Origin: Candidatus Tantalella remota
GTDB taxonomy: Bacteria > Omnitrophota > Gorgyraeia > Tantalellales > Tantalellaceae
Direction of reading: 5' to 3'
Assembly: GCA_030765685.1 (NCBI GenBank)
Contig: JAVCCB010000050.1
Span: forward strand, 11,735 to 75,734
Length of the DNA: 64,000 nucleotides
Position numbers: made by a program. Below are positions 3,001 through 6,000 of the stretch, piece after piece. Within the stretch, counting starts at the first letter, position 1. Every line of letters starts with the position of its first letter.

Positions 3001-6000
3001 TAAGATTGTCCGACGCGAATGCGACTAAGGCCAACCTGAAAGACCTGATGAAGGCTACAGGGCTTGATAAGTATCTCAGTACTGATAATGTGAAGATAGT
3101 ATCGGGCGAGATGACACTTGAAGAGACCCTTGAGGTCGTAAAGGGTACGTTCGAGATCACCGACGCGAGTGAAGTAGCGATAGGTGACAGTGTGGACCTT
3201 ATAAAGACAGATAAAGACAGAGAACTGATGTCGGCAGAGAAGGCCCCTGTATACGTCCAGATGGACGGAGACGGGATAGCGTCCCAGTTGCTCCTGACAG
3301 TGCTCGAGATAGTCGCTAACGACGGCAAGGTGCCGGCGGCCCTGGGGCAGATCAGCACAAAGGACGGGTACACCAACTGGTACGTGTATCTGCCGAACAT
3401 GGAAAAGATAGATCTTGACGATCTCAAGAATGAGATCAAGAACTACGAGAGGATCTTGATAGCGGCGTAATGCTAACGGTATTACGCATGGAGGCGGGAA
3501 GCCGTTCGGGCCCCGCAGGGTAGGTAGGGGCTCGAACGGTCATCTGTTCACCGAATGGAGGCGGGGAACATAGTTTCCAAGCCTGAAACGCTCTGCGCCG
3601 GAATGCCAAGCATCGGAGCAGGGCGTTTTGCATTAAAAGCAGTGACCAGTGATCAGTGACCAGTGATCAGTTGCTGATGACTGATGACGGGTCCCTGATA
3701 TCCCAATAGCCTGATCACCTAGTCCCCGATGTCCTGATCCCCAGATATCCTGAACTCGATACCCCGATGTTAGCCTACCTTGTTAGAGATTTAAAAGGTA
3801 GAAAATTAGAGGTTGAAGTGAGCCTATAGCTGTGTTATAGTAGGTATATCATTGGAGTTAATTAAAGAAACAGTTAGATAAGGCATATCCGGGGGGATAA
3901 TGGCAGGGCGTTCAAACAGACTATGTAAGGTAATATCTATAACAATTCTTCTTGTTTTTACCTTCCAACAGATCGGCTGGGTTCAGGAAGGCCGGCCGGT
4001 ATGGTCAAATTCACTTAATTCATTCAATATACAACCTCATGGTTCATTTCCCGACGTAAAGGTACCTTATGATGTGGGTGAGGTCAACGAAAGAGCCGAT
4101 TATGGCGGAAAAGACCTCATTATCAATATACAGGATGCCCATGCTTCACTCTCCGGGCAGCATTCTATAGTAAATATACTTAATACTCTTATCAGCCAAT
4201 ATGATGTGGATCTGATCGCCCTTGAAGGCGGTTCGGGGTATATCGATACTTCTATCTTGCAGACCTTTCCCGACAAAGATATACGTAAGAGTACGGCCAA
4301 TTTTCTGATGAAGGAAGGGAAGCTGAGTGCGGGGGAGTTCTTTGCCGCGACAAGTGACAGGTCGGATATCGCGTTCTATGGAGTCGAGGACAGTGAACTT
4401 TATGAGAAAAATATATCAAGTTTTAAAGATGTTATGGAAGAGCGGACAGAGTATGTCGGAAATGCCGAGTCTCTGATCGTGCAGCTGGATGCCATATCGG
4501 AAAAGGTATATTCTGAAGAACTTAAAAGCTTTCAGGAAAACTCCAGGAGTCACCGGACAAGTAGAAAGGGATTTGAAGAATACTGGGACAGCCTAAAGGC
4601 GCTTGCCGAAAAGAAGGGGGTATCTTTTAAGGGTCATCCTAATGTGAGGAAACTTGTGGAGGCTATGCGTATAGAGAAGTCGATAGATTTTGCCGAAGCC
4701 AATGCTGAGAGAAAAGAACTTATAAATTCATTAAGCAATGTCCTGGACAGAAAGACTATGGAGGACCTGGTTTACAGGTCCCTGCTGTTCAAGCAGGGCA
4801 AGATATCTCCCGCAGATTTTCACGCGTATCTCGATCTCGTGGCTTCGACCGGTGGGGTAGATACCTCCCCCTATGAAAACCTTAATAAGTTCATTAGATA
4901 CGTTTCCGTATATGAGGACATAGAGATAACCTTGCTTTACAGGGAGATGTCCGATCTTGAGGACACAATAAGAGAAAAACTTTTCCGTAATGATGATGAG
5001 CGTGACCTGCATGCGTGGATAAAATTGATGGAGCTTCTGGTGAAGCTTTACAGCGTTGAGCTTAACAATAATGAATTCGGGTATATCGAGAATAACAGAG
5101 GTATGTGCGAAGCCTCGAAGATCGCGGCGTTTTTGAAGGATATCTGCCGGAGATACGATGTTTCTGCCGGAAAAGGATATGAGACGGGGCTTATCTTCGA
5201 GGGGATGGACGAGGCAGTGGTGTTCTATCTGACCGCGGAGAAGAGGAACAGGGCGCTTCTTGAGAATACTCTCAAGAAAATGAAAAGTGAGGGCAAGCAT
5301 GTAGCCGCGCTGATAACGGGCGGTTATCACACCAGCGGTCTTAGGGAACTGCTGAAGGATAAAAAATTGTCCTATATGGTAGTCGTGCCTAAATTTCAGG
5401 AAGGCGAGGAACGGCCCTATATCGCGATACTTACCAACAAGAAAAAACCTTATCAGAAACTTATAGAGTCAGGCAGGTACCAGCTGGCAGTAATGGCCTA
5501 TTTTGAGGATATGAATGAAGAAAAGTTCATAGAAAGCGCCATGTACGCTTTGGCGAGTGTTGCCTCCTCCGGCGGAGATTGGAAAGCAGAGGCAGGTATG
5601 TGGTTCTCTCTATATTCTCACGAATATGAGCGTCTTCGCGTCGAGTCGGAAGAAAAAGTCGACGGCAGTATAACTCCGGCGGAATTCGCCGGGATCCTGG
5701 GGACGGGGCAGGCCGGCTCCGAAGGGCAGCTCAGGATAGAGCAGTGGAACGATTCTGTGTTAGTTATCCGTACAAAGGACACTGAAACTTCATATTTTAT
5801 TTTAGACCCCGGTGAAGGCGGCGTGCTGAAATCCCCCCAAGCATTGTCGCCTATCCGGGGGCAACAGATACTTGAAGAGATCTCTGCAGGTGGGAAAACG
5901 GCCCGTCAGGGATCAGGGGAGAGCGATCCCTCTTTCGTATCCGGTATGAGTGAGGGGGATATCAGGGTATTGATACAAAGGCTGAATGATGACAAGGAGC

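Follow-up and report, generated by a model that had tools for sequence, protein, structure and literature searches.

Candidatus Tantalella remota, of the phylum Omnitrophota, carries two adjacent and co-directional giant genes, called here gene 2 and gene 3, in a stretch of 64,000 nucleotides (nt) of contig JAVCCB010000050.1 (positions 11,735 to 75,734, forward strand), referred to below as the window. We found that the two encoded proteins begin with the same module, hereafter the head, which probably belongs to a previously unannotated family of the fold superfamily of erythromycin esterases (Ere), ChaN, HopBA1 and Tiki, with an intact active-site set and a predicted outward-facing position at the membrane. 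Both genes stem from a metagenome-assembled genome (MAG) of the species, and all nucleotide positions given for them are those of the window.

3900..13214, + strand: gene 2, an uninterrupted open reading frame (ORF) of 3104 amino acids (aa), exact match to MDP8299153.1, "hypothetical protein"
13400..22582, + strand: gene 3, an uninterrupted ORF of 3060 aa, exact match to MDP8299154.1, "hypothetical protein"

BLASTP comparison of the first 600 aa of each protein returned 30% identity over 529 columns (E = 1e-84). The shared module measures ~465 aa (gene 2 aa ~52-517, nt ~4053-5450; gene 3 aa ~51-516, nt 13550-14947), opens with a conserved I-P-x-D strand at aa ~52-60, and closes with a conserved tail, ERPYxAILTNKxxPY, beyond the last strand. 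When the six-frame translation of the window was searched with a hidden Markov model (HMM) of the domain, exactly two copies were found, in gene 2 (E = 2e-194, aa 58-516) and gene 3 (E = 2e-158, aa 55-513, both in stop-to-stop frame numbering). A third copy in ORF 189-3470 or ORF 23090-27655 was ruled out by the lack of any match to the domain HMM. An earlier note on this DNA had proposed a common N-terminal domain for genes 2 and 3, marked by the motifs IQDAH, GG(Y/F)HT and SY(M/V)VV.PK; our results confirmed the shared domain and located each motif where it had been placed. The domain itself was also rightly located, but its limits were slightly tight, as the module extends from aa ~52 to ~517 with the tail included. 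The two copies are laid out as follows.

4053..4445, + strand: gene 2 head, N-terminal part of the alpha/beta (major) lobe, from motifs, AlphaFold secondary structure and invariance among 136 members
4128-4142, + strand: gene 2 motif IQDAH, aa 77-81, with D79-x-H81 at 4134-4142, beyond strand beta-1
4224-4226, + strand: gene 2 E109, beyond the next strand
4329-4343, + strand: gene 2 motif AGEFF
4377-4391, + strand: gene 2 motif YGVED, which holds G161 and E163
4446..5195, + strand: gene 2 head, lobe of ~250 aa made of helices only, inserted after the third core strand and ahead of the Arg-bearing helix, from the AlphaFold model
5196..5414, + strand: gene 2 head, C-terminal part of the major lobe, from motifs, invariance and the core model; FY at aa 442-443, R449 at 5244-5246 and N456 at 5265-5267
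5319-5333, + strand: gene 2 motif GGYHT, aa 474-478, with G474-G475-x-H477 at 5319-5330
5370-5393, + strand: gene 2 motif SYMVVVPK, aa 491-498
5406..5450, + strand: gene 2 conserved tail ERPYIAILTNKKKPY, from column conservation in 136 representatives
13550..14947, + strand: gene 3 head, the second copy, from BLASTP to gene 2, the HMM match and motifs; its tail reads TPYIKVLTNQ
13625-13639, + strand: gene 3 motif IQDAH, aa 76-80, with D78/H80 at 13631-13639
13721-13723 and 13880-13882, + strand: gene 3 catalytic-type residues E108 and E161
14741-14743 and 14762-14764, + strand: gene 3 catalytic-type residues R448 and N455
14816-14830, + strand: gene 3 motif GGFHT, aa 473-477, with H476 at 14825-14827
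14867-14890, + strand: gene 3 motif SYVVVTPK, aa 490-497

Conservation was assessed in 136 representatives that are mutually at most 50% identical, with domain residue 1 set at gene 2 aa 51. G111, Y393, R399, G424, G425, H427 and P447 were invariant (136/136), D29 and H31 were found in 135/136, E59 and G60 in 134/136 and N406 in 132/136, while position 113 was always E or D. The key residues correspond to D79, H81, E109, E163, R449, N456 and H477 of gene 2, and to D78, H80, E108, E161, R448, N455 and H476 of gene 3. The conservation of His and Glu between the two paralogs that had been anticipated was thus observed, with D, H, E, R and H at matching positions that are invariant in 134-136 of the 136 representatives. 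The presence of the full residue set together with the Arg reads as the signature of a retained active site.

The spacing of these residues pointed in the same direction. In the head, 28 residues separate the first His from the Glu and again 28 separate the Arg from the second His, exactly as described for EreC (H50 to E78 and R261 to H289). BcR135 has the same first interval (H85 to E113, 28), and RRSP, which contains E3900-x-H3902, has intervals of 28 (H3902 to E3930) and 29 (R4001 to H4030). In the core model described below, parallel strands are directly followed by the His and Glu residues, and the helix leading into strand 4 bears the Arg. The first His is thus located past strand 1, with an acidic helper before it and the Glu ~28 residues later, an agreement with known members that is one of order and spacing, not of superposition. 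The Arg-bearing helix precedes the second His-bearing strand, which is of the G-x-x-H type (G424-G425-x-H427). Across the family the first motif is (Q/K)DxH and the second GGxH. The conserved residues had originally been viewed as putative metal ligands. Their conservation holds, but a metal role is doubtful because EreC and RRSP are described as metal-independent, and by analogy with these enzymes the residues more likely form a water-activating His/Glu set. Tiki itself is a metalloprotease.

To model the fold, the full domain was submitted to AlphaFold2 with a 36-sequence alignment, which yielded a mean predicted local distance difference test (pLDDT) of 87 and a predicted template modelling score (pTM) of 0.77. 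From the N-terminus, the model runs through a hairpin strand and strand 1, a helix and strand 2, short helices and strand 3, a region of unbroken helices (model residues 115-414), then strand 4, a helix and strand 5. The helical lobe was modelled with pLDDT mostly between 85 and 95. The tail was modelled with low confidence (pLDDT 49-54 at model residues 451-477), although it is conserved as strongly as the catalytic motifs. A second model was built for the core alone. Its query fused gene 2 domain residues 5-132 to residues 383-455 and was aligned with natural homologues of full length; the invariant columns were unchanged from those of the full alignment. This core model, from which the helical lobe is removed, reached pLDDT 91.6 and pTM 0.87.

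A Foldseek search of 350,542 PDB chains with the core model returned HopBA1 at rank 1 (5t09, E = 1.2e-3, probability 0.99), ChaN at rank 2 (2g5g, E = 4.8e-3, probability 0.99, template modelling score (TM-score) 0.47), and BcR135 at ranks 3 (2rad_B, E = 6.1e-3, probability 0.98) and 4 (3b55, E = 0.029, probability 0.77). The folds ranked below, namely KaiC, RecA and nucleoside kinases, had probabilities of at most 0.35. With the full-domain model, the list was dominated by coiled-coil and helical-bundle noise arising from the helical lobe; the highest probabilities went to BcR135, EreC and ChaN, those for BcR135 and EreC being only 0.44-0.51 at TM-scores of ~0.2. Structural papers place HopBA1, ChaN, BcR135, PMT, RRSP and the Ere enzymes in one fold. 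Judged from these predictions, one rare fold group filling the top ranks with two independent models is no chance outcome, and the modelled head displays the parallel beta-sheet core with flanking helices that can be superposed on solved members of the group. A P-loop or RecA-like nucleoside triphosphatase was also considered and ruled out, the sequence having no Walker A (P-loop) motif and the Foldseek probability being at most 0.35.

Sequence searches did not identify the head. Neither whole head matched any Pfam family at E ≤ 1, and the whole gene 2 protein matched none at E ≤ 0.01. We also scanned 21 family cores singly against Pfam after removal of the long helical insertion. The two models that the earlier note had singled out for checking remained silent in both the heads and the 21 cores: PF01963 (TraB_PrgY_gumN) gave no match even at E ≤ 10, and PF05139 (Erythro_esteras) none at any reported threshold. 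In the same core scan, however, PF04187 (haem-binding uptake, Tiki superfamily, ChaN) produced sub-threshold matches in 8 of the 21 cores, DUF5682 in 3 and DUF5694 in 2. The best PF04187 score was 15.4 bits (E = 0.02) against a cut-off of 27.7, so that no match of the head rises above the gathering score of this family. Matches with listed coordinates always covered the R..N..GGxH segment, near the C-terminal end of the profile for PF04187 and DUF5694; the three such PF04187 matches cover profile positions ~129-204 of 213. We regard this PF04187 signal as a lead, short of proof. An NCBIfam scan of the 21 cores gave noise only, its commonest noise family serving as a control by matching only 4 of the 21. 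PDB sequence searches with phmmer and hmmsearch, using single domains and full, core and C-terminal motif alignments, likewise returned only noise (troponin C, HSP90, RuvA). Finally, the head was compared by hhalign with a profile of YbaP, a TraB/GumN protein of E. coli MG1655, built from the close enterobacterial relatives that the homologue search listed. Local mode gave a probability of 10-17% over 42 columns that were out of register, with a shallow YbaP alignment (effective number of sequences ~2), and global mode gave a meaningless result. The head therefore lacks a significant sequence-profile match to the superfamily, and it is not to be filed under PF01963, PF05139 or PF04187; it is best seen as a new, very large family.

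Both heads follow an N-terminal hydrophobic segment, located by hydropathy scan at aa 8-26 in gene 2 and aa 12-30 in gene 3. In gene 3 this segment is the only one, whereas gene 2 has more at aa ~1346-1434.

3900..4004, + strand: gene 2 leader, with a basic N-terminus (RSNRLCK), a hydrophobic anchor of ~16 aa (aa 11-26) and the conserved post-anchor motif QQIGWVQEGRPVW

The family leader starts with a basic stretch, often W-(K/R)-(K/R)-R-H-x-F-F-(I/F)-K, continues with ~15 hydrophobic residues and carries Q-Q-(I/L)-G-W-A-Q-x-G-x-P-V-W past the hydrophobic segment. Among 169 leaders, the flank before the anchor was more positive than the flank after it in 158 and the opposite was seen in 4; the mean charge over all leaders was +2.1 before the anchor and -0.8 after it. 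According to the positive-inside rule, such a distribution denotes a type-II signal anchor. Furthermore, many leaders have 40-80 residues ahead of the hydrophobic segment, which therefore looks like an anchor rather than a classical signal peptide, and the distance from the anchor end to the catalytic His is constant at ~60 residues in the same set. With such an anchor in front of it, the head would be held on the outer side of the cytoplasmic membrane, close to its surface. The proposal that the domain sits behind a signal peptide or anchor and is extracytoplasmic is supported in this way by the 158 leaders that fit an N-in anchor. The post-anchor motif appears too conserved for a plain anchor and may be a recognition or cleavage site.

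The head is a very common N-terminal module of long and giant Omnitrophota proteins. An exhaustive profile search with full alignment against 1.84 billion cluster representatives (clusters at 50% identity) matched 9,977 representatives at E ≤ 1e-3 and 6,896 at E ≤ 1e-30. Among the 150 best matches, no head begins more than ~80 residues from the N-terminus, and the longest of these proteins has 7,834 aa; the 136 new representatives have a median length of 2,636 aa. A word-indexed homologue search retrieved 43 proteins, most of which end at contig edges; nearly all those with a named source come from Omnitrophota MAGs, and none of the 43 has a Pfam domain on the head. A stand-alone head of 494 aa with its own signal-like leader (P0042, L003 8001-9485) is encoded on another metagenomic contig, in a same-strand row of large genes for a 2908-aa HEAT-repeat protein, a 706-aa protein and a 1154-aa Metallophos protein, with a 587-aa gene 33 nt downstream in the row. 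Head and body thus seem separable, and their fusion is not obligatory. The gene contexts of P0042 and of P0043, which are short or stand-alone heads, revealed no functional partner. A preprint on Omnitrophota giant genes describes their N-terminal regions as mostly devoid of recognisable domains, the head is not described in two further papers on the phylum, and our full-text literature search found no paper connecting Omnitrophota to Tiki, ChaN, Ere or TraB.

Several observations weigh against the view of the head as an outward-facing member of this superfamily. No sequence method (Pfam, NCBIfam, PDB searches or hhalign with YbaP) reached significance with any known family. The Foldseek E-values of the core are borderline, none being ≤1e-3, its TM-scores are modest (0.40-0.47), and the core model is an artificial construct with the helical lobe deleted. 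Moreover, as gene 3 has no further membrane segment, a head on the outside would put sugar-phosphate enzymes outside as well, which is biochemically odd, and the neighbouring ORF 23090-27655, with neither head nor anchor, carries an isomerase region 54% identical to that of gene 3; the preprint on giant genes likewise questions such topology predictions.

These observations could be taken to mean that the resemblance is convergent or spurious, the head having a generic three-layer alpha/beta fold of the Rossmann, RecA or kinase-like type. The non-significant sequence searches, the Foldseek E-values of only 1e-3 to 3e-2 with TM-scores of at most 0.47, and the KaiC, RecA and nucleoside-kinase folds that come next in the list would agree with this. 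We consider it highly unlikely, given that the top four chains all fall in one small fold group, three at probabilities of 0.98-0.99 and the fourth at 0.77, that the full-length model independently gave the same group, that the sub-threshold Pfam matches point to the same superfamily, and that five catalytic positions agree in order and spacing. Least probable of all is true membership of the TraB/PrgY/GumN family PF01963. Its motif order, as in E. coli YbaP (GSIH ... E ... LEG ... RN ... GALH), resembles that of the head, and PrgY and Tiki are typically tethered to the membrane on its outside. However, the failure to match PF01963 and the short, out-of-register YbaP alignment argue against it, the first motif is (Q/K)DxH and not GxxH, and the 28-residue His-to-Glu spacing and the helical lobe are features of Ere and BcR135. 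Of the superfamily names used by the earlier note, the erythromycin-esterase-like/Tiki part is borne out by the four top Foldseek matches, the PF04187 lead and the invariant, correctly spaced residues, whereas the TraB/GumN part is not. A non-catalytic module of the same fold, serving ligand binding, docking or assembly at the membrane, or recruitment of an export machinery, is also a distinctly unlikely reading. ChaN, PMT and HopBA1 share the fold without demonstrated hydrolase activity, ChaN provides the best Pfam and TM-score similarity, and the extreme N-terminal position recalls secretion or targeting domains, such as the TPS domains of two-partner secretion. PMT, however, lacks the 2His/2Glu set, which in the head is complete, with the Arg, and invariant in nearly all representatives.

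If the head is an active enzyme, as we favor, its alpha/beta major lobe would hold the active site and be split by the ~250-aa helical lobe where Ere has its minor lobe, and it would act as a metal-independent hydrolase by analogy with EreC and RRSP. Oriented by D79, H81 would act as general base and deprotonate a water kept in place by E109 and H477; the hydroxide so formed would attack an ester or peptide carbonyl, and R449 would stabilise the oxyanion or tetrahedral intermediate. This mechanism was proposed for EreC and is backed by mutagenesis for RRSP. As for its role, the head could carry out a task generic to long Omnitrophota proteins at the membrane, for example the processing or release of the tethered polypeptide, with no link to the enzymes of the body. 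We advance this only tentatively; beyond the head, the first 600 residues of gene 2 and gene 3 show no significant BLASTP similarity, and a nearly invariant head in front of two dissimilar bodies therefore favors a generic, body-independent task. Because two conserved motifs flank the fold (GWAQxGxPVW and ERPYxAILTNKxxPY), self-processing or release is attractive. In its strongest form, the head would be a universal self-maturation module, a peptidase of Tiki/Ere type that acts close to the membrane, cleaves its own chain and so releases or activates the exported giant protein; this specific version we consider unlikely. The candidate cut sites may be GW(A/S)Q-x-G-x-P-x-W just past the anchor or the apparently unstructured ERPYxAILTNKxxPY tail. 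The main rival to a generic role is an enzyme of the same fold acting in trans on outside substrates, such as bonds of prey or host envelopes or environmental polymers, in which case the head would be the business end of a surface enzyme array and not a maturation module. The predicted extracytoplasmic location, published proposals that giant Omnitrophota proteins attack target-cell surfaces, relatives of the fold that act in trans on macrolides, Ras or Wnt, the stand-alone P0042, which shows that a head can work unfused, and the mannan-degradation locus adjoining the giant genes in the window are all in keeping with action in trans. Conversely, a near-constant head with dissimilar bodies fits a housekeeping task better than one particular substrate, the head lies ~60 residues from its anchor and far from a prey surface unless released, and no substrate-binding module stands next to it. 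On balance, action in trans seems rather doubtful to us.

Giant Omnitrophota genes are among the longest known and their function is poorly understood. Our results assign to the N-terminal region of their products its first fold, together with a probable active site and a predicted position at the membrane. They also make the anchoring, maturation or release of these proteins open to direct experiment, with two candidate cleavage motifs to start from. Should self-maturation prove true, it would account for a processing step that earlier publications sought in C39 and S8 peptidase domains. The superfamily, which includes antibiotic-resistance esterases, toxins and Wnt-clipping proteases, also gains a large and divergent branch marked by its giant helical lobe and a first motif of the DxH form.

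The bodies behind the two heads differ in content. Pfam recognizes in gene 3 the PGM/PMM domains I-III followed by phosphomannose-isomerase/cupin domains. Inspection of gene 2 by eye revealed a stretch resembling class-I S-adenosylmethionine-dependent methyltransferases (ILEIGGG ... LNPGGQVFII, aa ~880-1000) and, in DADIKLGDNYGYD and DWDVKSENYGYD, two motifs of the kinase-like form D-x-K-x-x-N-Y-G-Y-D. The membrane segments at aa ~1346-1434 form a cluster, and an acidic Ser/Asp/Glu run, DDDESSSSSEDEESSSSSSSSED, comes after them. ORF 23090-27655 encodes 1521 aa and has no anchor, head or hydrophobic segment; its isomerase/cupin region (aa 1121-1521, nt 26450-27652) is 54% identical to that of gene 3 (aa 2299-2700, nt 20294-21499). 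From their sequences, gene 3 and this ORF are taken as membrane-tethered and soluble versions of the same multi-enzyme body, side by side. ORF 189-3470 encodes a headless protein of 1093 aa whose membrane segments lie at aa 207-307. It is weakly similar to gene 2 aa 2678-2863 and 3048-3092 (BLASTP E = 0.005 and 0.069), including the last ~45 residues, and the two may share a C-terminal module.

Directly downstream of these genes, positions 27835-41391 hold a locus in the style of mannan use, with two ABC sugar permeases, two GH113 mannanases, two CBM27-like mannan-binding proteins, a ROK kinase, a solute-binding protein, a PMT_2 mannosyltransferase-like protein, a GT2 and a YdjC. This content fits the phosphomannomutase and mannose-6-phosphate isomerase domains of gene 3 and ORF 23090-27655. 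Two RNA genes follow.

42133-42218: tRNA-Leu
43028-43409: transfer-messenger RNA (tmRNA)

Just past the tmRNA gene, the G+C content falls from ~0.48 to ~0.36-0.40. The low-G+C stretch (43869-62572) encodes a RepB/PriCT primase, a DUF3987 protein, a GmrSD endonuclease and the genes of a type I restriction system (two HsdM, HsdS, HsdR); it probably represents a defence-gene island that inserted at ssrA.

Among known systems, the Tiki/TraB/PrgY/GumN proteins (PF01963; YbaP) share the superfamily and the motif order of the head. Tiki and PrgY are membrane-tethered, outside-facing enzymes that clip peptides near the membrane, and work by Bazan and colleagues from 2013 and Zhang and colleagues from 2016 reportedly deals with enzymes of this kind. 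They differ from the head in that neither Pfam nor hhalign supports a relationship, their first motif is GxxH, Tiki is metal-dependent and a helical lobe is missing. HopBA1, a type III effector of Pseudomonas syringae (5T09), has the best Foldseek E-value and a size near that of the head core, but it is a small injected protein without helical lobe, membrane anchor or known enzymatic activity. ChaN (PF04187, 2G5G) has the best TM-score and is the only Pfam family matched repeatedly; unlike the head, it has no helical lobe, its known role is haem binding and not hydrolysis, and the score of the head for its family stays below gathering.

RRSP, with PMT C1-C2 one of the TIKI-fold domains of MARTX and Pasteurella toxins, offers a functional parallel. 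It has the 2His/2Glu set and the Arg in the same local pattern, with an acidic residue two positions before the first His, E-x-H where the head has D-x-H. It hydrolyzes peptide bonds without a metal, is inhibited by benzamidine but not by EDTA and, as a TIKI-fold endopeptidase domain inside a very large multidomain secreted protein, may by analogy resemble the head. In contrast, it is an internal effector module delivered into host cells and not an N-terminal head, its appended helical domains differ, and it is not among the listed top 50 Foldseek matches of the core model. The erythromycin esterases (EreA-D and BcR135/BcR136; PF05139) differ from the head by the absence of a PF05139 match, by a far smaller helical lobe (183 residues from Glu to Arg in EreC, 340 in the head), by an acidic helper at -3 and not at -2 (DxH), and by being soluble proteins of ~400 aa, whereas the head is anchored and fronts proteins of 1,000-7,800 aa. 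Nevertheless, EreC and BcR135/BcR136 are the only members of the fold described with a helical minor lobe, and the helical lobe predicted for the head is inserted at the corresponding place, between the Glu strands and the Arg helix of an alpha/beta major lobe. They also share with the head the acidic residue just before the first His, and EreC both 28-residue intervals, while BcR135 ranked among the top Foldseek matches with both models and EreC did so with the full-length model. The new family is therefore nearer to Ere and ChaN than to TraB/GumN, and closest to the erythromycin esterases in architecture and residue spacing.

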